From: Synechococcus sp.
GTDB lineage: Bacteria > Cyanobacteriota > Cyanobacteriia > Thermostichales > PCC-7336
Length of the DNA stretch: 64,000 bases
NCBI GenBank assembly: GCA_051439605.1
Contig: JBFRWN010000032.1
Location: 32,001 to 96,000 of the forward strand
Direction of reading: 5' to 3'
Under the pieces are notes generated by a model that worked only from the letters and a program-made list of their open reading frames with translations, had not been told where the DNA came from and did not search any database. Below are positions 9,887-38,779 of this stretch, piece by piece (the first letter of the stretch is position 1; every line of letters starts with the position of its first letter). The translations under genes were made by a program, and so were the position numbers.

Positions 9887-10123
9887 AGGGGGACTTGAGA
9901 CAGCGCAAGATTTCTCAGAGGATTTGGCCAAAAGCAGTCTAGCCTGCTGAGGTCAAGCCCAATTTCGCAGGAATGATTTACATAAGTTAATATATCAGCG
10001 GCAGTAAGTAGCCCTGGTGACGATCAGGGCATGTCTGGACCGGTTTCCTGCCACCGATATGAGATGTTCAATCACTGGACCGTTAGCAAACTGGCCACTT
10101 GCGTCAAGAGAGAGGATAAGCAG

Positions 10124-28573: not shown

Positions 28574-30310
28574 TCAGCAATCCGCTAGAGCAGACTCAGC
28601 ATTGCCCATCCCTACAGCAACACCAGTCGTCTCAGCCTCCTGTGCATCACTGTTAGAGGATTCTGCCACTGCCAACTTGTACCGCAATGCGGTAGCCAAC
28701 ACAAAGGCAAGATCCAGACCCACCAAAACCGCAATTCCTGCCGAGCCCCCTGTGCCAAAACCGTAACTGTGCAGCCCCTGTCCCAAGACAAAATTGACCC
28801 CGTACCAAGCCATCAGTACGGCATTAAACGAAACAATGCTAGCCACCGCCATTCCAAAGTTATTCACCCAACCCACAAATCGACCATGCAGCGGAGCTAA
28901 GTAGCACAGCAAAGCGATCGCCGCCCAAGTCTCCTTCGGGTCCCATCCCCAAAAGCGTCCCCAAGAAAAATGCGCCCAAATCCCCCCCAAAATAATTCCA
29001 GCCGCTAATAGTAGGACACCCACCTGCAAAACGCTGTAGTTGAGCTTTGATAATTGACCCGCTCGCTTGCTCCCCTGCGGTGTCACCCAATAATGGGCCA
29101 AAATGATGTGCCCCAACCCCATCGCCAATGCGAAACACGCGTAGCTTAGGGTGATGGTGGGGACGTGAATGCTGAGCCAAAAGTTATCCCGCAGTACAGG
29201 TACCAGCGGCTGAATGCTAGCATCCAAAACCGCTGGCAAATGATCCGCAAGTACCAGTGTCAGGATAGATAGGGGGGCCGCCGCTAGCAAGTAATAGCGG
29301 GCACGGGTTCTAAGTTCGAACGCCATTGCCAAAGCCGCAATCCCGAAACCGACCCAGACAACGGATTCGTACATGTTGGTGACCGGAGGGCGATCGGCCA
29401 CCTGCACCCGCAGAACAAATCCGTACAGCTGTATTCCCAGCCCAGCCGCAAATGTACCCATCGGTAGCCAGTACCAGTTAGAGAGCGGCCAGAGTGTTAT
29501 TGCCAGCATGCCGACAAACGCCAGAGCGAAAATCTGCCACCCTTTGGCAAAGGCGTGCAGGCGATTGAAGAATACCTCCCTAGACATGACGCGATCGCCC
29601 GGATACACCGTCGGACTCAAATCCTGCAATTGGGTATGCAACTGCCGAGCGAGGGGATCGATCGCCTCCACTTGACGATGGCGAGCGTAAGTCACCTTCA
29701 TCATTTCCAGCGTGCCAACCAAATCAGCGGCATCCTCAGCAGAATAAGCTGCGGAGGTCTCCTGGATACCCGTCCAGCGACCCTTTAGGTCGGAGGGGTG
29801 GGGCACTAAAGGCAGCTCGTCGCGGGCCACCGTGTCCAGCATCAAAGACATCCGATCGGCCACTATCAAAGCTTCGCGATCGTCACGGCTTAGACCCAGG
29901 TCAGCCGCTTGCTTTTCCCGCACCTGTCGCAACGTCATAGGCAACGACGACTGCATTAACTCCCTAAAGCTGAAGTATTTCTGTTCTGGATCGAGGCCAG
30001 CAGCTTCTTTGAGGGGGCGGTAGTTGAACAGGATGTAGGGTTCTTGGTTCCAGTCGCGATCGTTAAACCACAGTCCCAAAAAAGTAGTCAGATAGTCTTC
30101 TTTACTGCCATCCGATTGCCGATAGGTAGTAGATCCGTGGATTTGGGTGACAGTTTCGCGGGCTACCGTATCCAGTGGCTTTTTACGGCCATCCAGCTGC
30201 ACCGCAAGGGATTGCAAACCGGCAGTGGGGCCAGGTTGCCAAGTGCTAAAGGGGGTGAGGGCGATTGCCAGACCCAGCAGTAACCCAAGTGCAAATTTTA
30301 GAAATTTCAT
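28574..30310 (-). CDS. ccsA: Cytochrome c synthase CcsA/ResC with long N-terminal extracytoplasmic extension (system II)
   Basis: RPPVTNMYES, LVPVLRDNFWLSIHV, WWD domain GGIWAHFSWGRFWGWDPKETW, NFVLGQGLHSYG; N-terminal DGRKKPLDT. Confidence 0.92.
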   Translation of the reverse strand: MKFLKFALGLLLGLAIALTPFSTWQPGPTAGLQSLAVQLDGRKKPLDTVARETVTQIHGSTTYRQSDGSKEDYLTTFLGLWFNDRDWNQEPYILFNYRPLKEAAGLDPEQKYFSFRELMQSSLPMTLRQVREKQAADLGLSRDDREALIVADRMSLMLDTVARDELPLVPHPSDLKGRWTGIQETSAAYSAEDAADLVGTLEMMKVTYARHRQVEAIDPLARQLHTQLQDLSPTVYPGDRVMSREVFFNRLHAFAKGWQIFALAFVGMLAITLWPLSNWYWLPMGTFAAGLGIQLYGFVLRVQVADRPPVTNMYESVVWVGFGIAALAMAFELRTRARYYLLAAAPLSILTLVLADHLPAVLDASIQPLVPVLRDNFWLSIHVPTITLSYACFALAMGLGHIILAHYWVTPQGSKRAGQLSKLNYSVLQVGVLLLAAGIILGGIWAHFSWGRFWGWDPKETWAAIALLCYLAPLHGRFVGWVNNFGMAVASIVSFNAVLMAWYGVNFVLGQGLHSYGFGTGGSAGIAVLVGLDLAFVLATALRYKLAVAESSNSDAQEAETTGVAVGMGNAESALADC

Positions 30311-30425
30311 GATGCGAATCGATAGGGAGTTCGGAATTGTTGTAAGCACACTCGCTCAGTGCTGCAAATTTTTTGGGGTTGGGAAGGCCAAGATCGAAGA
30401 CAACGGTTTAGTTTCTTTGAATGAC

Positions 30426-32294
30426 TTAGGCACTCGCTTGTGGTGTCAATTCTGCGGTTTCTGCATCCTCTGGATCTGCTTGCTTGTTGACGTTTGGCCT
30501 AGAAGGCTTTAAGCCAAACAGCGTGCGATAGTGTTTCGCCAACTCTTGTCCGTAGAACATGACACCAATGCCAGCAACCACTAACAGCGAGCCCGTCCAC
30601 GTCAGGGCGGTGACCCAGGCTGGTTCCCGCTTTACCTGCAGGGTTGACTGTCGCAAATCGCCAGGATTCCAGGACGCTTGCGCAATTTTCCAGCCGCGAT
30701 ACCAAGTGGGGTGGTTCATCCATACCTCGCGAAACGCATGCACTCCCTGTTCGGGATCGTCAATCCGAATTTGGCTGGTCCACATGGCTACAGAGTCAGA
30801 GCCTTCGTTGCGTTCAACGATAAAATCCTCCAGCGCCACCGCAAACGGCAGTTCCATTGACTTCGGGCCATAGACTGCATATACCTCGCCGTCCGGGGTG
30901 TCGATGGATTGAGGTTCCCCCCACTGCAACCACTGCTCTTGTCCGCTTGTAGATTTCACCAACACGGCAGGCACCGCATCCGCTGATGCCCCTGCCCCGA
31001 CTAGAAATGAGGCATCGACAATTTCCCGTTCAGTCCGGGCATTGGGTATATACTCGGCCACCTCTAGCTGGAAATCTGCCCACCCCAAATCAATCGGGTC
31101 TTCAAGAGTCAAAGGCCCAGACTGAAACCCCTTTGCATTGTTGACGGTGTAATACAGCTTTCCTGACGGAGTCGTGATCGCCTGAAACACATTGTCCTGA
31201 GGTGCAGGAGCCTGGTAGGTGGCAACAATCCCTGAGGGCTCACCAGCCACCAACGTTCTGACCGGCTCTAGATCGGTACGACCAAACACAAACCAGCGCT
31301 CTACCCCCTGAGGACTCTCTATCTGCAGTTGCAAAGCGGGATTGCGTAGGTGTTGGGAGGTGGTTTCTGGTTCATTGTTACCGTTCAATCGAAAATCTGG
31401 CCAAAAGTTGACCAGCCTTACTTGCACGTCGTCAGACAGGCCGAACGTTGCCCCCAAAGACTGTTCGACGTCAAAGGATTGCCGATCGCCGTTCCCCGCC
31501 AATAAGACGCTCCCCCATTTCCCTTGGATTTCTGGAGGAGGGGCCATCATCGCATCTAATTCAGACTGAGACCGAACTGACGCAAGCTTTAGGGTGGCTG
31601 GCCCGAGGATCACTTGTTGGGCACTGGAGGGGGCGATTGCCAGCCATTTTTCAACTGACTGACCCATTTTCTGACTGGTCAGGGTGAAGTGCAGGGCAGG
31701 ATTGGGGGCTAAACCATCGGGAAGAAACCGATTCTGAGCCAGTGTACGCTCTCGATACTGCACCAGCTCCAAGCTTGCGATGCTCTCGTGCTCGATCGAT
31801 CCATCTGCTCCTACCTGCACGTCTACCGCAGACGAAGAACCGTTAGCAGTCAGCACCTCAAGCAATTCCCCCTGCAATCGCAACAGGCGATTCCCTCCAA
31901 TATCGGTGCGCAGGGGCAACATGCCCTCCACTCCCAGGTGAATCACAGCGGCAGAACCGGCAATCAAAATCACCAAGCCAAAGTGGGTCAGGGCAAATCC
32001 AACCTTGCGGGCTCCTCGCCAGGGAAAGCGGCTCATCGCAGAAACCGACAGGTTTACAGCCAGCAAGAACATCAGAAGCCCGAACCAAGCGCTCTTATAG
32101 ATATCCCGCTGCACAATCTCTGAACCCACCCGCGACTCGTAGAAGGTGGTCCCCATCAATACAGCCGCGATCGCCATCAACAGCGGGACAGCGAGCTGTA
32201 TGGATCCCAAAAACTTAATCAAAGGATTTTTGACGCTGGAAGGGCTGTGTTTCGCCGGCATAAGCTTGCCAATCAACTGCGATCGTATACCCAC
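30426..32294 (-). CDS. ccsB: Cytochrome c biogenesis protein ResB/CcsB-like
   Basis: LGSIQLAV..GT..ES, IYKSAWF..L..NL, conserved TM His (ALTHFG), large soluble domain, MNHP.WYRGWKIAQAS, C-terminal TM; upstream of ccsA; start may be ATG 32261. Confidence 0.85.
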   Translation of the reverse strand: MGIRSQLIGKLMPAKHSPSSVKNPLIKFLGSIQLAVPLLMAIAAVLMGTTFYESRVGSEIVQRDIYKSAWFGLLMFLLAVNLSVSAMSRFPWRGARKVGFALTHFGLVILIAGSAAVIHLGVEGMLPLRTDIGGNRLLRLQGELLEVLTANGSSSAVDVQVGADGSIEHESIASLELVQYRERTLAQNRFLPDGLAPNPALHFTLTSQKMGQSVEKWLAIAPSSAQQVILGPATLKLASVRSQSELDAMMAPPPEIQGKWGSVLLAGNGDRQSFDVEQSLGATFGLSDDVQVRLVNFWPDFRLNGNNEPETTSQHLRNPALQLQIESPQGVERWFVFGRTDLEPVRTLVAGEPSGIVATYQAPAPQDNVFQAITTPSGKLYYTVNNAKGFQSGPLTLEDPIDLGWADFQLEVAEYIPNARTEREIVDASFLVGAGASADAVPAVLVKSTSGQEQWLQWGEPQSIDTPDGEVYAVYGPKSMELPFAVALEDFIVERNEGSDSVAMWTSQIRIDDPEQGVHAFREVWMNHPTWYRGWKIAQASWNPGDLRQSTLQVKREPAWVTALTWTGSLLVVAGIGVMFYGQELAKHYRTLFGLKPSRPNVNKQADPEDAETAELTPQASA

Positions 32295-32445
32295 ACAAAC
32301 AAATCAAAAGCAAAGGAGTTTGTGCCTTTGAGTACAAATCAAAGGAATTACTATGCTTGGATGAATAATTATTATGCAATTTCTGCAATAGAATCAAGCC
32401 GGTCGTTTGATTTCTGTTGCCGAATTCGGAACAACTGGCGATTTT

Positions 32446-32461
32446 TGTATTTATGGTTACA
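32446..32461. promoter_or_regulatory. NtcA-binding consensus in the divergent ccsB/globin intergenic region
   Basis: tttt-TGTA-TTTATGGT-TACA-gaaaaa is a perfect TGTA-N8-TACA with A/T flanks; no canonical TAN3T about 22 nt downstream on either strand. Confidence 0.6.
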
Positions 32462-32974
32462 GAAAAATAAACTGTTGTGTTTATTGCGTGGCTTGAGAGA
32501 TTGCCATACAGTCAGATTTCCCACAACCAACTAACCAGCAATCAGAAAATTGGGCAAAAATACGTAAATGCAAAGAACGTATTTAAGAAATGTAAAATCT
32601 ACAAAACCTTCGCGATAAACCTAAAAATGGTATTGCTGGCTACGATTCCTGGTCTCTGAAGCGCCTAAATTTCAGACTTAACGCACCAACGTGCAATTCA
32701 AGCTCCCACTTTGTTTAATGCGGTTTATCAGTAGAAATACTGGAAAATCTTACACTGTTCGATTAATTCCTGCTCTAAAGCAAAGCCTACTCGATGCCAA
32801 CGTTGGCAGAAAATCTGGCGATTTCTATGTTGGATGGCGGGTTTCTAGTGGATATCTAACAGGACTTAGAGGAAGTGTTTTAGCCGGTGTGACAATCACT
32901 TGCCGAGTTTCCTTTACTGCGTAAAGAGCTCTAATTGTTTGTCCGCAGTCTCACAGTAACGAGGAAACAAAGAC

Positions 32975-33505
32975 ATGTCTTTGAAGGTTGAGCTCTTAGA
33001 AAGCAGCTTTGAGAAAGTGAAGCCCAACGCTGCAGCTTTTGCAGACTCTTTCTACAGCAATTTATTCACAACTGCTCCCGAAGCAAAGCCCCTGTTTGCG
33101 AATACAAACCTGGAAGAACAGAAGAAGAAATTGCTGGCCTCTTTGGTTTTAGTGGTGGAGAACCTTCGCAACGGCGATGTCCTCGGTTCTACTCTTCGAG
33201 GGCTAGGGGCTCGTCACGTCAAGTACGGAGCATTACCTGCCCATTACCCTATTGTCGGCGGAGCGCTGCTGGAAACCTTCGAGCAGTACCTGGGAGACGA
33301 TTGGACTCCCGATGTCAAGCAGGCCTGGGTGGATGCCTACGGGGCTATTACAGAACTCATGCTGGATGGTGCTGACTACTCTTCTGAAGAGGTTGCTCTG
33401 CCACCCGAGCCTTCCGTATCCGTTAGCGATGGCGATCGCAGTGGAATGCTTCCCATTGCTGGGGCTGTCATTGGGTTTTTGATCCTGGGTCTTTTCCTTC
33501 TCTAG
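32975..33505 (+). CDS. Globin (flavohemoglobin-type globin domain) with C-terminal transmembrane anchor
   Basis: SFYSNLF (B10 Tyr), KPLF (CD1 Phe), EEQKKKL (E7 Gln), LGARHVKYG (F8 His), HYPIVG, AWVDAY; tail IAGAVIGFLILGLFLL; GAGGA RBS. Confidence 0.92.
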   Translation: MSLKVELLESSFEKVKPNAAAFADSFYSNLFTTAPEAKPLFANTNLEEQKKKLLASLVLVVENLRNGDVLGSTLRGLGARHVKYGALPAHYPIVGGALLETFEQYLGDDWTPDVKQAWVDAYGAITELMLDGADYSSEEVALPPEPSVSVSDGDRSGMLPIAGAVIGFLILGLFLL

Positions 33506-33643
33506 GTCTAAGGCAATAGAGTGTGCGTTCTTCCACTGGCATCCAGTCCACGTCTGTCTGGACATAGACGCTAACGGCAGACCGAACTCATTCGATGAGC
33601 TGAGGGCTTCTAGCTCCGTTGTGTTTGTGGTTATCCAGTTTGC

Positions 33644-34264
33644 ATGTTGAAGTTGAGAACGGCGGCGATCGGAATAGCGTTGATAGCGCTTACTGCTTGG
33701 GCCGTTATTTTTGCCCTCGGGCTCGACCAACGCATTGCCTTCTTGCCCGGCACCACCTCTTCAGGACACCACTTGTTTGAGGCCTCCTGCCAATCCTGCC
33801 ACCAAGGATTTCAGAAAGTCTCAAATGACACCTGCAACCGCTGCCACGAAGCGGAGCTAGCAGAAGATATTCACGGCCGGAAAAAATTCCGCGATCCCCG
33901 TTGGGCGGTCTACATAGAAGAGATTGATGTGTTGACCTGTACCACCTGCCATGAAGAACATATGCCCATGTCTGGCAGGGGCGTCAATCTGCCGCCAGAC
34001 CTATGCATGAGCTGCCACGACCACATTATTGAGGCGGGCAACTCCGACAGCTTAGATAGTCATCTTGGCTTTACCCCCGATGGATGCTGGACTGCAGGCT
34101 GCCATAACTTCCACGATCACCGCTCGATCTCAACAGGGTTCTTGAGGACAAACCTGGACCAGCCCAACTGGTTGCCAGAACCCGATCGCCTAGAGCGCGA
34201 CATTCAGCCACAGGTGGCAGTGGCTCCTGCCCCCGATCTCAATCGCGAGTTATGGGGGAACTGA
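33644..34264 (+). CDS. Membrane-anchored multiheme cytochrome c (4 CXXCH + 1 CX4CH)
   Basis: N-terminal TM; CQSCH, CNRCH, CTTCH, CMSCH, CWTAGCH; extra His residues as candidate distal ligands. Confidence 0.9.
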   Translation: MLKLRTAAIGIALIALTAWAVIFALGLDQRIAFLPGTTSSGHHLFEASCQSCHQGFQKVSNDTCNRCHEAELAEDIHGRKKFRDPRWAVYIEEIDVLTCTTCHEEHMPMSGRGVNLPPDLCMSCHDHIIEAGNSDSLDSHLGFTPDGCWTAGCHNFHDHRSISTGFLRTNLDQPNWLPEPDRLERDIQPQVAVAPAPDLNRELWGN

Positions 34265-35130
34265 TCGTGCATTACCTTTCTCGGCTGCGAACTAGATGCT
34301 TGAGTGGTAACTTACCCCTTCACTCCTCATTAGCCACAGTTCTTGTCGTGGGGCTCTGCTGCTGGCTGAGCTTGAGTTCTCCTTCATCAGCCCTAACTTT
34401 TGAAGAGGCGACAGAACTCTGGACCGGCAGCACCCATTCTCTTCAGAACGTGAATTGCTCCAGCTGCCATCAGGTAGAGGATAGCGGTGCATTCGTCACA
34501 GCACCCAATCGCGAGAGTTGTCAGCAATGCCACGAATTTTCAACACAAACGTTTCTATTGGGCAAACACGGTATCCGGATGTTGGAGGGGCAATCTGCAC
34601 TCACTCCAGAGATGGCATTACTTCCCATGAAACCGGCATCCCACGGACTAGAGATGAACTGCAACGTTTGTCATGACGTGCACGCTCAGAACGTGCGGAC
34701 TGCTGCAGTGGATGCCTGCCTCACCTGCCACAGCGACCGACATTCTCTCAACTACGTCAATTCCAAGCATGCAGGCTTGCTTGTAGGGAATGAAGATTTG
34801 CCCAGGCCGGGGGGGGCTGAAGTGACTTGTGCAACTTGTCACCTACCGCGCCAAGCAGTCAACGGAGCTGTAATGGTGAATCACAACAACACCTATACCC
34901 TGAAACCGCGCGATCGCATGGTGGCGGATGTTTGCATGAATTGCCACGGCATGGAATTTGCCTACAACGCCATTTTTGACGATGAGCTGGTCACGGGTAA
35001 TTTCGACCGTTTCCCTGACATGAAGCACCAGTCGCTGCAAATGTCGCGGGCGGAGCGAGACCGAAGACAATCTCGCCACCCCCCACAGATTTCCAACCCT
35101 AACAAGTTGGTCGCTTCTCCACCGAATTAG
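34252..35130 (+). CDS. Exported hexaheme cytochrome c
   Basis: Signal peptide (..LSLSSPSSA); CSSCH, CQQCH, CNVCH, CLTCH, CATCH, CMNCH; start uncertain (34252 or 34267). Confidence 0.9.
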   Translation: MGELIVHYLSRLRTRCLSGNLPLHSSLATVLVVGLCCWLSLSSPSSALTFEEATELWTGSTHSLQNVNCSSCHQVEDSGAFVTAPNRESCQQCHEFSTQTFLLGKHGIRMLEGQSALTPEMALLPMKPASHGLEMNCNVCHDVHAQNVRTAAVDACLTCHSDRHSLNYVNSKHAGLLVGNEDLPRPGGAEVTCATCHLPRQAVNGAVMVNHNNTYTLKPRDRMVADVCMNCHGMEFAYNAIFDDELVTGNFDRFPDMKHQSLQMSRAERDRRQSRHPPQISNPNKLVASPPN

Positions 35131-35155
35131 TACTCTCTCTCAAGGAAAAACAACC

Positions 35156-35833
35156 ATGGATGTCTTGACTTCTATCAGAGCCTGGATCGGGCGTTTTAAG
35201 CCCCGCACTCTGGCGATTTCTACCTTCTTAGTAGCAGCGGTTTTCACCGTTGTGGCATGTGGTGGTTCTACCCCGACAGCATCTGCCCCCACTGGCATTC
35301 CCCCCGAGCAAGTGGTTGACTACATTGCCGTTACAGCAAAAGGTGCCCGTACCGCCTACGTGAAACACGTCGTCAACCGCGTAACCGAGTTGGAAGGGGA
35401 GCCTGTGGCGCGCGAAGGTGCAGTCGTTGACGCCAACTCCACCGAATTCTGGCAAGACGAAGATGGTATTCCTTTACCGGCTCAAATGTTCCGCTTGGCT
35501 TCTGAAATTACCTCTGATAGCGATCTGGCCAGTGGCATGACCATCGGTCTAATTTCTAGCTGGAACATCAACGACGCCCACTCCCCCAAAACCGAGTTTG
35601 AGAAAACTGCCATTAAGGAGATGGAGGAAACTGGCGAGCCTGTGAAGATCGAACAGGAGATTGCCGGTCAGCGCTTCATGACTGCGATGTATCCGGATAA
35701 GGCTGTAGCCGAAGCTTGCGTCACTTGCCACAACACCCACCCCGTTCACCTCGAGCGCTACCCCGACAAGGTATTTGCTCTTGATGATGTCATGGGTGGC
35801 GTCGTTATCAATCTGCCCTTAGGGGACGCATAA
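35156..35833 (+). CDS. DUF3365/Tll0287-like monoheme c lipoprotein
   Basis: Lipobox VVACGG; LPAQMFR, LISSWNIN..P.T.FE, DKAVAEACVTCHN, DVMGGVVI; AAGGA RBS. Confidence 0.85.
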   Translation: MDVLTSIRAWIGRFKPRTLAISTFLVAAVFTVVACGGSTPTASAPTGIPPEQVVDYIAVTAKGARTAYVKHVVNRVTELEGEPVAREGAVVDANSTEFWQDEDGIPLPAQMFRLASEITSDSDLASGMTIGLISSWNINDAHSPKTEFEKTAIKEMEETGEPVKIEQEIAGQRFMTAMYPDKAVAEACVTCHNTHPVHLERYPDKVFALDDVMGGVVINLPLGDA

Positions 35834-36043
35834 GCCGATTTGTAGAGCAGGTTGCTCGTTCGGCGGGTGGCCTGTTCATTTGGAATTCCCCCTTGGCGAG
35901 TTTTCTGAACCCTAGACTGTGCAGAAGTTTTATAAGTTGTCGCTTGCGCTATGGGTGGCAATTTTAATCGATCTTGTTTCAGGGGAAGTATCGAATATTC
36001 CTACTTTGCAGAGTCGAGACATCTAACAGTCCAAGGCTGCTCT

Positions 36044-36631
36044 ATGAAACCCACATTCCCCACCCTTTCCGTACTGGCTGCAATCTCGGTTTTATTGGTC
36101 GTACCCTTTATCATCAGTGACTGGTACGTTCCTGCCATCCGCGACACTGTCTTTTACACCCATCAAATTTTGCGTCGCGGACTGTACAAAGAAATAACCG
36201 GTTTCGTTTGTCTGGGATTTTTTGCCATTGAAATGGTCCTTACCCTGCGCAAGCGCGGGGGACGCTGGAAAATTAAGTTGCCAGGTTCAATTTTCTTCTG
36301 GCGTAGCTTGCATATCTTTTTGGGAGTGGGTTTTATTGCTGCTACCCTCATCCACAGCGTCGGGGTACACGGCAGCTTGTTCAATCATGTTTTTCTGGCT
36401 GTCTTCATCGTGCTTTCTTTGATTGCCATGATGGGCGTTGCGCTAGAAACTCGTCTCGTGGGGTTGACCGCTCGCAAAGTGTCTTTACTGCCCGTCGGAC
36501 TTCCTGCGATCCCTAAAGGTCAATTAATTCGGCAGCTTAGATCCGTATGGTTAGGGGTGCACATTGTCTTGGTCAGCCTGTTTACTGTGTTATTGGGCTT
36601 TCATGTCCTTTTGGCTTTCTACTACGAGTGA
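36044..36631 (+). CDS. Integral membrane protein of ferric-reductase-like / di-heme cytochrome b type
   Basis: About five TM helices; LRKR after TM2; two H-X13-H pairs (HIFLGVGFIAATLIH; HIVLVSLFTVLLGFH); start trimmed to ATG 36044. Confidence 0.75.
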   Translation: MKPTFPTLSVLAAISVLLVVPFIISDWYVPAIRDTVFYTHQILRRGLYKEITGFVCLGFFAIEMVLTLRKRGGRWKIKLPGSIFFWRSLHIFLGVGFIAATLIHSVGVHGSLFNHVFLAVFIVLSLIAMMGVALETRLVGLTARKVSLLPVGLPAIPKGQLIRQLRSVWLGVHIVLVSLFTVLLGFHVLLAFYYE

Positions 36632-36700
36632 AATTCTGCTTACGAGGACACTTTTCAGATAACACTCTAGTCGAGTTCTCTGTTTGTCAATCCATCAACT

Positions 36701-37186
36701 ATGTTTACTCAGCTCTCTTCCCTAAGAAGCCTATCTGTCTGTTTAATTATCGTTGTAAGTCTTCTGCTGATGCTTCAGCGCCCTTCTCGTGCTAACTCGC
36801 TGCTGTCTGGGTATGCAGCCCTGAAGCAAGCCGTAAACGATTCCGTCCTCTTATCTGCAGCAGTCGCGGACAATAAGCCTGCGCTAATAGAGTTCTATGC
36901 CGATTGGTGTAGCGTCTGTCGATCCATGGCCCCCACAGTAGGACGATTGCGCGCACATTATGGAGAGCAGATTAACTTTGTCATGCTAGACATTGACGAT
37001 CCGAGATGGAGCAAGCAGGTGCAAGACTTTGGGGTTATCGGAGTTCCCCATTTTGCATTTATCTCCGACCTGGAATCCCCGTTTGGATCTCGCCAATTGC
37101 AGCAGACCCTAGTGGGCAGGCAACCCGCCTACGTGATGGCCGCCGCCCTCGAAGGCTTGTCAATCGCAGACCCCACGGCAAACTGA
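36701..37186 (+). CDS. Exported or membrane-anchored thioredoxin (TxlA/HCF164/CcsX-like)
   Basis: N-terminal hydrophobic helix; KPALIEFYADWCSVCRSMAP, INFVMLDIDDPRW, GVPHF. Confidence 0.85.
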   Translation: MFTQLSSLRSLSVCLIIVVSLLLMLQRPSRANSLLSGYAALKQAVNDSVLLSAAVADNKPALIEFYADWCSVCRSMAPTVGRLRAHYGEQINFVMLDIDDPRWSKQVQDFGVIGVPHFAFISDLESPFGSRQLQQTLVGRQPAYVMAAALEGLSIADPTAN

Positions 37187-37220: not shown

Positions 37221-38147
37221 TTACGCTGGAACGTTAAGGGCTCCCCGCTTGCGCAGATCGGCCTTGAGTTCATCTGTCAGGCCCAAAACGTCCGTCATGC
37301 TGGTACCGCTGACATTCGCCCCCTCAAACAACGCCCCTCGCAAGTTGGCACGCTCTAGGTTGGCATCAATCAGATTAGCTTGCGTAAATACTGCCCCTGA
37401 GAGATTTGCCCCCTCCCAGCTGGTACCAAACAACGATGCGTTTGTGAAGTCTGCCTGGCTGGCATAAGCGCCATCGGCGATCGCCGTATCCAGCTGGGCC
37501 TCGAGAAAGATACTGTCAGCCAAGTAAGCTTCACCCAAGTTAGTGCCGATTAAATCTGCAGAAGTCAGATCGGCCTTGGCCAGTCGCACCCGCGTCAATT
37601 TACTTTTATCCAGTTGGGTCCCCACGAGCTTGGCGCGAGTCAAATTGGCCCCATCCAAGTCCACCTGGACGAGCTTGGCACTGGAGAAATCAGCTTCTGT
37701 CCAGTCTGACGCTTTCATGTTTGCTTTCACTAAATGGGTGGCTTGAAAAACGGCTTTTCTGCCGCTGCAGTCCTCCAGATTCGCTCGATCCATCTGGGCA
37801 AGCGAGGCATCTGCACCATCAAAAATTGCCCCCAGGAACCGTGCGTTCGTCGCTGTTGCTTGTCTCAGGTTCGCCCGTTCCAGTCTTGCAGCAGTCAACT
37901 GGGCATGGCTTAGATCGGCCCCTTCTAATACAGTCTCAACCATCCAAGCCCGAATCAACAGCGTGTTGTTAAAGTTCGTCCGTTTGCATGAGGCTTGAGA
38001 GAGATTAGCCACTCGCATGTAAGCCCGCGAGAAGTCCCCCCCATCCAGACACCGGCCTTGCAACTCAATGTGGGCCAGCTCCTCTTTTGTTAAGGGCAGT
38101 CCCTTTTGAAGGCGATCGAGCACCTCTTCAGGGGCTAGTACGCTCAT
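37221..38147 (-). CDS. Pentapeptide repeat protein
   Basis: Continuous A(D/N)LXX repeats over about 250 aa. Confidence 0.92.
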   Translation of the reverse strand: MSVLAPEEVLDRLQKGLPLTKEELAHIELQGRCLDGGDFSRAYMRVANLSQASCKRTNFNNTLLIRAWMVETVLEGADLSHAQLTAARLERANLRQATATNARFLGAIFDGADASLAQMDRANLEDCSGRKAVFQATHLVKANMKASDWTEADFSSAKLVQVDLDGANLTRAKLVGTQLDKSKLTRVRLAKADLTSADLIGTNLGEAYLADSIFLEAQLDTAIADGAYASQADFTNASLFGTSWEGANLSGAVFTQANLIDANLERANLRGALFEGANVSGTSMTDVLGLTDELKADLRKRGALNVPA

Positions 38148-38329: not shown

Positions 38330-38779
38330 TTAGGACGGCTTAACATTAACAGTAATTTTTGAAGAAATCACCGGATGGTCATGGGGAACGTGCAAGTAGT
38401 TGCCCAGAACCAATTGGAGTGTGTGTTTTCCCGGGGGGAGGGTGATTTCTGCCTCGGTTTGCCCGCCTCCAAAATGGCGTACGCGATCGCTTTTGGGCAA
38501 AGAGGATTTCAGATCGGGTAATTCTGCTACATCAACCAATAAATGATGGTGACCGGTATTGGCTTTATCCACCCCTGCAGGTGCAACACCCATGCCCGAT
38601 AAGCCAAAGCTGACGGTAAAGGTGGGGGGGACGGTGTCACCATCTTTCGGAAAAATAATGTACTCCCGCGCTGTTTCAGGAGCATGGGATACAAATTCGT
38701 CAGCCAGTGCTTGGGTCGGAGATACCAGCCAGCAGCAGACGACAAAGATTACTCCCATTAGGACAGCAATACGGTTCAT
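38330..38779 (-). CDS. DUF4399 family exported protein
   Basis: Signal peptide; FGLSGMGVAPAG..TGHHHLLVD, HFGGGQTE, LPPGKHTLQLVLGN..HVPH. Confidence 0.85.
   Translation of the reverse strand: MNRIAVLMGVIFVVCCWLVSPTQALADEFVSHAPETAREYIIFPKDGDTVPPTFTVSFGLSGMGVAPAGVDKANTGHHHLLVDVAELPDLKSSLPKSDRVRHFGGGQTEAEITLPPGKHTLQLVLGNYLHVPHDHPVISSKITVNVKPS

Follow-up and report, generated by a model that had tools for sequence, protein, structure and literature searches.

What is a chain of multiheme cytochromes doing in a cyanobacterium, and what controls it? Multiheme c-type chains are, to our knowledge, generally assumed to be missing from cyanobacteria. The locus that raises this question lies in a 64,000-nucleotide (nt) stretch of Synechococcus sp. 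contig JBFRWN010000032.1, here called the window, whose positions are used as coordinates. Eight open reading frames occupy 28574..37186: the maturation genes ccsA and ccsB and, on the other strand, genes for a globin, a pentaheme and a hexaheme cytochrome c, an sCache_heme lipoprotein, a membrane protein and a thioredoxin. The cluster is a real, conserved system of known parts, previously undescribed and under predicted nitrogen control, and its function is what we infer below.

A check of open reading frames and motifs confirmed what a sequence-only reading of this DNA had described, namely eight genes, 12 c-heme motifs (five in the pentaheme protein, six in the hexaheme protein and one in the sCache protein), H-X13-H pairs in the membrane protein, a WCSVC thioredoxin and an anchored globin. 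When the whole 4.9 Mb genome was searched, more than two CXXCH motifs per protein were found only in the cluster cytochromes. A second, soluble single-domain globin (C111:1815-2342) and an exported two-CXXCH cytochrome (C21:52555-53388) are encoded elsewhere in the genome. The housekeeping ccsA is separate and shorter and is located on contig C47, and the CcsA/CcsB pair of the cluster is additional to it; the cluster CcsA is a predicted dedicated System II synthase. The thioredoxin is the probable thiol reductant of the apocytochromes. Literature searches returned no description of the system, in line with the earlier statement that no characterised cyanobacterial equivalent is known, and the available text of PMC3820574 does not mention such an operon within the terms searched.

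Distribution and phylogeny of the operon

A scan with one genome per species gave 49 loci, 47 of cyanobacterial type and 2 gammaproteobacterial, many of them cut by contig ends. The operon proved to be syntenic in 47 cyanobacterial genomes, mostly marine benthic, and in Gammaproteobacteria, a point on which the sequence-only reading had made its case depend. Gene order is conserved across the loci as globin, pentaheme, hexaheme, sCache, membrane protein and thioredoxin, with relatives of the sCache protein in 48, of the globin and the membrane protein in 44 each, of the thioredoxin in 35, of ccsB in 28, of ccsA in 27 and of ChaN in 12. A short Rieske lipoprotein is present in 17 of the 49 loci (two long unrelated rows were dropped). 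A probable further member of the cluster is the pentapeptide-repeat gene at 37221-38147; its relatives appear in 29 loci, a count in which repeat proteins cross-match and which does not establish the orthology of every row.

Across the phylum the cluster is rare (4 of 401 cyanobacterial genomes, source genome included); it is common in close kin, being present in five of the six other genomes of the same family and in 10 of 31 relatives overall. The system is not specific to cyanobacteria: 23 of 401 sampled gammaproteobacterial genomes match (about 5%, centre genome included). A quick tree built on the hexaheme half from 130 rows places all 48 cyanobacterial rows on a single branch (SH-aLRT 99), where they are roughly grouped by family. 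An early acquisition in cyanobacteria followed by many losses would fit this pattern. Five HIP1 sites occur in 8.6 kb, where about seven are expected at the genome mean of one per 1160 bp, and this density near the mean marks the cluster as host-like. Together with the single cyanobacterial clade and the presence in family members, it agrees with the long residence proposed earlier. Among cultured strains, Acaryochloris marina MBIC11017 and Synechococcus PCC 7335 and PCC 7336 carry such a chain, which makes a nitrogen-controlled multiheme chain conserved across distant benthic cyanobacteria directly testable.

The Prochloron copy (L043:9968-14112) is rearranged or decaying. Its locus has no pentaheme gene, the sCache gene is in two pieces, and a three-domain unanchored globin is placed after the membrane gene.

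Predicted nitrogen control

Where one NtcA box had been read before in the divergent spacer, two GTA-N8-TAC boxes are present, and one of them belongs to a full promoter. The box at 32630 is followed 22 nt on by TAAATT, which gives an NtcA-type promoter toward the globin according to the consensus that we take for such promoters, GTA-N8-TAC-N21-23-TAN3T. Of 39 orthologous loci, 27 have GTA-N8-TAC no more than 700 nt ahead of the globin, against a mean of 3.0 and a maximum of 8 in 300 Markov nulls, so that the boxes are present beyond chance. The full layout occurs in 18 of the 39 upstream regions (null mean 0.25), in reverse orientation in one of 39, and in the genome control in 13 of 2489 other genes. 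By their promoters, the window locus (32630-32671) and these 18 loci are predicted members of the NtcA regulon. In Acaryochloris, the full layout stops about 20 nt ahead of the transcript start reported at 4432802.

The gammaproteobacterial sample consists of 21 loci: the Aliikangiella locus and those of the non-centre genomes other than G618 and G664 (20 of 22). A total of 80 loci were taken from metagenomes, 32 of which are at least 12 kb long. NasT-type ANTAR genes were found in 10 and nrtABC-type transporters in 7 of the 21 genome loci, and each of the two in 11 of the 32 long metagenome loci. Predicted nitrogen control by two unrelated regulators, NtcA in cyanobacteria and the NasT type in proteobacteria, is well supported. 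The NtcA promoters and the nasT/nrtABC neighbours uphold the nitrogen link drawn earlier for a heme chain that is conserved and co-regulated and spans the membrane.

A siroheme NirB domain is present in 20 of 22 module-bearing proteobacterial genomes against 133 of 378 others (Fisher p 2e-7, a value overstated by the relatedness of the genomes; the background includes one unpublished genome). NirA is encoded in the source genome, with nirA-nrtP-narB on a contig other than that of the cluster, and it is retained in 19 of the 20 tested cyanobacteria that carry the cluster. NirA and NirB are not replaced by the module, which occurs alongside nitrate assimilation.

The proteobacterial operon and the direction of electron flow

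The gammaproteobacterial membrane domain is fused to Pyr_redox_2 and Rubredoxin_C (NAD(P)H-flavin) and BFD [2Fe-2S] domains of the NirB type, with 30-38% identity. The two cytochromes of the window are joined there into one 11-heme protein, and the sCache protein follows. A c5-type monoheme cytochrome is encoded in 9 of the 21 loci, and in 18 of the 21 a globin (13), a truncated globin (4) or a hemerythrin-like gene (1) comes next. The flavin-membrane fusion, cytochrome, sCache and globin are all present in the 32 long metagenome loci, 21 of which also encode c5; the globin is near-obligate in the module. The hemerythrin-like gene stands in the usual globin position in Aliikangiella (L046:6783-11294). 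P0177, a candidate fusion of 831 amino acids (aa), joins an MFS transporter to a multiheme cytochrome in one protein.

By established redox potentials, outward flow from an NAD(P)H domain is downhill. The fusion and these potentials suggest that a cytoplasmic reductant is exported, and they point to electrons flowing outward from it and not from quinol, the donor named in the sequence-only reading. The flavin domain is absent from the cyanobacterial versions, in which the electron donor is likely ferredoxin, by analogy with NirA as opposed to NirB.

Heme proteins of the chain

In the hexaheme half, the order and spacing of the hemes match hemes 2, 3 and 5-8 of HAO and ONR, denoting a shared heme-packing scaffold. 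In a comparison with octaheme HAO, especially the reductive Kustc0458/0457 (PDB 6H5L; PMC8042395), and with ONR and NrfA, the likeness extends to the SKH and Asp-His motifs and to the fold of the C-terminal half. Unlike these enzymes, the protein lacks catalytic heme 4 and CXXCK, its C-terminal region is much shorter, and five extra hemes, one of them in the motif CWTAGCH, are carried by an N-terminal module that is either separate or fused. Opposite the heme-4 motif of Kustc0458, the alignment shows a segment free of Cys in all sequences compared (99 of 99 and 47 of 47), and the eight hemes with a five-coordinate catalytic heme 4 that define an HAO enzyme are not found. CXXCK, the catalytic heme motif of NrfA and ONR, occurs in 0 of 99 proteins, and the NrfA NCBIfam score is 15 against a cut-off of 595. 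Since 11 spare invariant histidines are available for 11 hemes, the pentaheme-hexaheme pair looks like an electron wire in which every heme would be bis-His ligated.

The sCache protein matches PF11845 with E 1.6e-17 and 64.8 bits (cut-off 24.1). Its lipobox Cys is invariant (47/47), no other Cys exists besides the CXXCH, and the His/Cys ligation of Tll0287 does not apply. Met111 and His195 are invariant, and Met111 is the probable axial heme ligand. The stand-alone Cluster 1 of the sCache_heme/Tll0287 proteins, as described in available parts of bioRxiv 10.64898/2026.02.01.703092, shares the PF11845 domain with CXXCH, the export and the absence of a signalling domain; the proteins found here differ in having no Cys ligand, an invariant Met, an extra His and a fixed operon context. 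The same parts describe a stand-alone member as a redox carrier with weak NO (nitric oxide) binding and a receptor-type member as an NO sensor, with NO binding varying across domains. The terms operon, multiheme and neighborhood are absent from the main text of that preprint.

The histidines of the membrane protein form two pairs, H121-X13-H135 and H204-X13-H218, invariant in 36 of 36 sequences. Family matches are weak only (PF01292 in 16 of 36, PF01794 in 2 of 36), and no solved relative was found. Translation probably starts at Met32, where Met is present in 34 of 44 aligned rows.

Closest solved relatives of the globin are the bacterial single-domain globins and flavohaemoglobins, including 3S1I, 1VHB and 2WY4. 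It fits a flavohaemoglobin-type domain with Tyr27, Gln49 and His81, which we take, by analogy to Vitreoscilla haemoglobin, to be B10, E7 and F8. No signal peptide was found in the globin, which would therefore face the cytoplasm, held by a single C-terminal hydrophobic helix at residues 158-176. Such an anchor is present in 32 of 39 cyanobacterial upstream globins versus 0 of 80 proteobacterial ones, and appears in step with the loss of the flavin domain in cyanobacteria. The cyanobacterial upstream globins have from one to five tandem domains, and the anchored globin of Symploca (L015:6687-9038) has five. Seven cyanobacterial loci (L006, L013, L019, L026, L028, L040, L042) encode a second, unanchored globin of a different type, 176-190 aa, located after the membrane or thioredoxin gene.

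Expression in Acaryochloris

In control, microoxic and hyperoxic cultures of Acaryochloris, the values given in the available part of PMC5295598 are 109/42/215 for the globin AM1_4406 and 416/70/1567 for the sCache protein AM1_4409. Both orthologues fall in microoxia and rise in hyperoxia, contrary to the analogy with anaerobic respirers drawn in the first reading. The pattern fits O2-dependent chemistry or nitrogen demand, and either way argues against an anaerobic respiratory role. A short transcript just past the NtcA-type promoter, AM1_4405 (L025:7845-8039), reportedly ranks within the top 50 by abundance in control cells, at 10,120 versus 109 for the globin, which suggests attenuation or a leader RNA. 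No conservation of its sequence was seen beyond Acaryochloris, and it has no Rfam match.

Proposed function and alternatives

The reading that we favour, and to which we give an even chance, is that the cluster would serve as a unit, activated by NtcA, for removing or salvaging nitrogen oxides, likeliest NO, during nitrogen limitation and nitrate assimilation. NtcA would turn the unit on, a step with strong sequence-statistical support in which binding is predicted. The dedicated CcsBA and the thioredoxin would mature 12 c hemes outside the cytoplasmic membrane, as follows from their families. A low-potential cytoplasmic reductant would pass the membrane via two b hemes, supplied by NAD(P)H through the fused NirB-type domain seen in proteobacteria and probably by ferredoxin in cyanobacteria. 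Electrons would then run along the pentaheme-hexaheme wire to the putative His/Met sCache heme, which would reduce NO or a related nitrogen oxide or hand electrons to a partner doing so; this is the weakest step. At the cytoplasmic face, the tethered globin would, as its family suggests, convert NO and O2 to nitrate for NarB and NirA, and may be re-reduced at the same membrane protein, given that the anchor is found where the flavin domain is absent.

The hexaheme half belongs to a fold family that processes nitrogen oxides, which speaks for this reading, as do the predicted nitrogen control by two regulators, the excess of siroheme NirB in module-bearing genomes, the near-obligate globin, the fused NAD(P)H-flavin/BFD domain of all 32 long loci, the Acaryochloris expression pattern and the NO binding, of varying degree, by sCache_heme domains. 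In the available text of PMC4724949, Bjgb-Flp clears NO that arises in nitrate assimilation, and the available part of PMC6104048 offers SyNOS of Synechococcus PCC 7335, a strain that also holds a hexaheme relative, as a precedent for globin-linked nitrogen salvage.

Several points weigh against NO removal or salvage as the function. Evidence for a substrate is nil, no NO synthase was found in the source genome, 11 spare histidines for 11 hemes leave no obvious open site, and the HAO catalytic heme is absent. Elsewhere a globin with a small reductase suffices for NO removal, and an exported 12-heme chain would be an unexplained excess. The genome's own nirA has no exact NtcA box in 550 nt around its start, so the motif is an imperfect marker; the Aliikangiella genome carries the module and gave no siroheme NirB match; and kin are not independent in any of the locus or genome counts. 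The only characterised stand-alone sCache_heme protein is the weakly NO-binding redox carrier described in the available parts of bioRxiv 10.64898/2026.02.01.703092. In the available part of PMC5295598, the table is one of differentially expressed genes in which AM1_4406 and AM1_4409 alone represent the operon, and glnN shows the same trend (251/67/532), so the O2 pattern may track nitrogen status or demand and not O2 itself.

Expression rising with O2 is also what a reductant valve would give, in which surplus NAD(P)H or ferredoxin under nitrogen limitation would leave via the wire, reaching high-potential carriers first and O2 last, with the globin buffering O2. The wire-like ligation pattern is consistent with it, as are the c5-type monoheme, encoded in 21 of the 32 long proteobacterial loci, and the Rieske lipoprotein, present in 17 of the 49 scan loci. 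However, a valve leaves unexplained the nasT/nrtABC linkage in heterotrophs as well as the NO-dioxygenase-type globin and the HAO-family scaffold, no recurrent oxidase gene was seen among the neighbours of the examined loci, and we regard it as quite improbable. Still less probable is inward flow, in which hydroxylamine, sulfide (reportedly a donor for Tll0287) or another periplasmic donor would be oxidised and the electrons would re-reduce the cytoplasmic globin, nitrogen ending as nitrate. It would account for the HAO-family fold and for a globin tethered to the membrane where the flavin domain is missing, and would supply nitrogen under NtcA control, but the missing heme 4 means no P460, the proteobacterial NAD(P)H domain makes the outward direction downhill, and the sCache protein has no Cys outside the lipobox and CXXCH. 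Extracellular electron transfer, which the sequence-only reading had entertained, or anaerobic respiration is highly improbable given the nitrogen regulation, the lower microoxic expression in the available part of PMC5295598 and a porin in one of the 32 long metagenome loci. The beta-barrel partner MtrB/PioB of Mtr/Pio porin-cytochrome conduits gave 0 matches in the 99.98% complete genome, in a search that had no positive control, as none of 14 control genomes passed the cut-off.

The 11-heme protein could instead be a new periplasmic ammonia-forming nitrite or hydroxylamine reductase for assimilation, the globin clearing leaked NO, and this we consider unlikely. A heme of the N-terminal half would occupy the empty HAO heme-4 slot, with Asp162 and His164 as distal catalytic residues; the two are invariant in 98 of 98 fused 11-heme proteins and align with the Asp-His pair after heme 6 of Kustc0458, which we take to be catalytic. 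The segment before the first heme covaries weakly with the heme-4-replacing loop and the heme-6 region, though at an effective number of sequences (Meff) of 149 for 399 columns and with no control. A NirB-like electron input would suit a nitrite reductase, and some ESM Atlas clusters are named 'nitrite reductase (cytochrome; ammonia-forming)', an automatic label only. Against these stand the missing CXXCK, the 11:11 ratio of histidines to hemes, and redundancy with the retained NirA and NirB.

A possible but doubtful reading is an unrecognised nitrogen-acquisition pathway that marine proteobacteria and benthic cyanobacteria have in common. In it, NO, nitrite or hydroxylamine leaking from neighbouring nitrifiers and denitrifiers would be captured at the expense of NAD(P)H or photosynthetic ferredoxin, spent across the membrane. 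The enzyme would be a rebuilt HAO with its catalytic heme from another module or the sCache protein, paired with tethered multi-globin arrays turning NO into nitrate. Such a pathway would bring to oxygenic phototrophs a characterisable multiheme nitrogen-oxide enzyme, apparently from a deep cyanobacterial ancestor. The favoured reading, if true, would mean an unknown route of NO or nitrogen-oxide turnover in sediments, mats and symbioses, a physiological context for stand-alone sCache_heme proteins, and reuse of the HAO scaffold minus its catalytic heme. For biophotovoltaics, an 11-heme wire that is native to phototrophs and fed by ferredoxin would be of interest.

Comparison with known systems

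Bjgb-Flp of the Bradyrhizobium narK-bjgb-flp-nasC operon resembles the cluster in a single-domain globin co-regulated with nitrate assimilation (NasT) and a flavoprotein electron source, while a membrane cytochrome b, a multiheme chain, an sCache heme and maturation genes are not described for it in the available text of PMC4724949 and PMC6759348. In the present system a NirB-like reductase is fused to the membrane protein or, in cyanobacteria, there is none; the window cluster has no flavoprotein, and the nitrate reductase genes are on another contig. Compared with NirB, the proteobacterial version shares Pyr_redox_2, Rubredoxin_C and BFD, but has the membrane cytochrome where NirB has its siroheme/[4Fe-4S] half, and true NirB/NirA is kept elsewhere. 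MsrPQ/Fre and ferric-reductase-type conduits, as we understand them, use, as is predicted for the cluster, a di-heme membrane protein that has two H-X13-H pairs and conveys cytoplasmic reductant to an exported acceptor, which here is a multiheme chain and not a molybdoenzyme or Fe(III); the weak, infrequent PF01794 matches are a further difference. By analogy, the cluster would work most like a Bjgb-Flp NO-removal unit joined to what we take to be an MsrQ-like conduit and an HAO-derived chain.

Features of the locus

Table 1. Features of the multiheme cytochrome locus in the window.
Feature	Position	Strand	Evidence or remark
ccsA, CcsA/ResC-type System II cytochrome c synthase, 591 aa	28574..30349	-	PF01578; TIGR03144 below cut-off
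ccsB, CcsB/ResB-type maturation protein, 622 aa	30426..32294	-	PF05140
NtcA-type box TGTA-N8-TACA, upstream one of two in the spacer	32446..32461		motif search
NtcA-type activated promoter GTA-N8-TAC-N22-TAAATT, facing the globin operon	32630..32671	+	motif layout
Globin, flavohaemoglobin-type single domain with C-terminal membrane anchor	32975..33505	+	profile matches, solved relatives
Pentaheme cytochrome c, membrane-anchored, 4 CXXCH and CX4CH; N-terminal half of the 11-heme protein	33644..34264	+	
Hexaheme cytochrome c, HAO/ONR-family scaffold, 6 CXXCH; C-terminal half of the 11-heme protein	34252..35130	+	
sCache_heme (DUF3365/Tll0287-like) stand-alone lipoprotein, 1 CXXCH	35156..35833	+	PF11845
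Membrane protein, five predicted helices, four invariant His, predicted di-heme cytochrome b	35951..36631	+	probable start 36044
Thioredoxin, WCSVC, membrane-anchored	36701..37186	+	relative in 35/49 loci
Pentapeptide-repeat protein accompanying the cluster	37221..38147	-	relative in 29/49 loci, mostly about 308 aa

A DUF4399 gene at 38330-38779 adjoins the cluster. Its second copy, 68% identical, is located on contig C115, and none was seen in the related loci. Between 44001 and 52000 of the window the G+C content drops to 42-48%, versus about 52% elsewhere, and this part is possibly acquired DNA.

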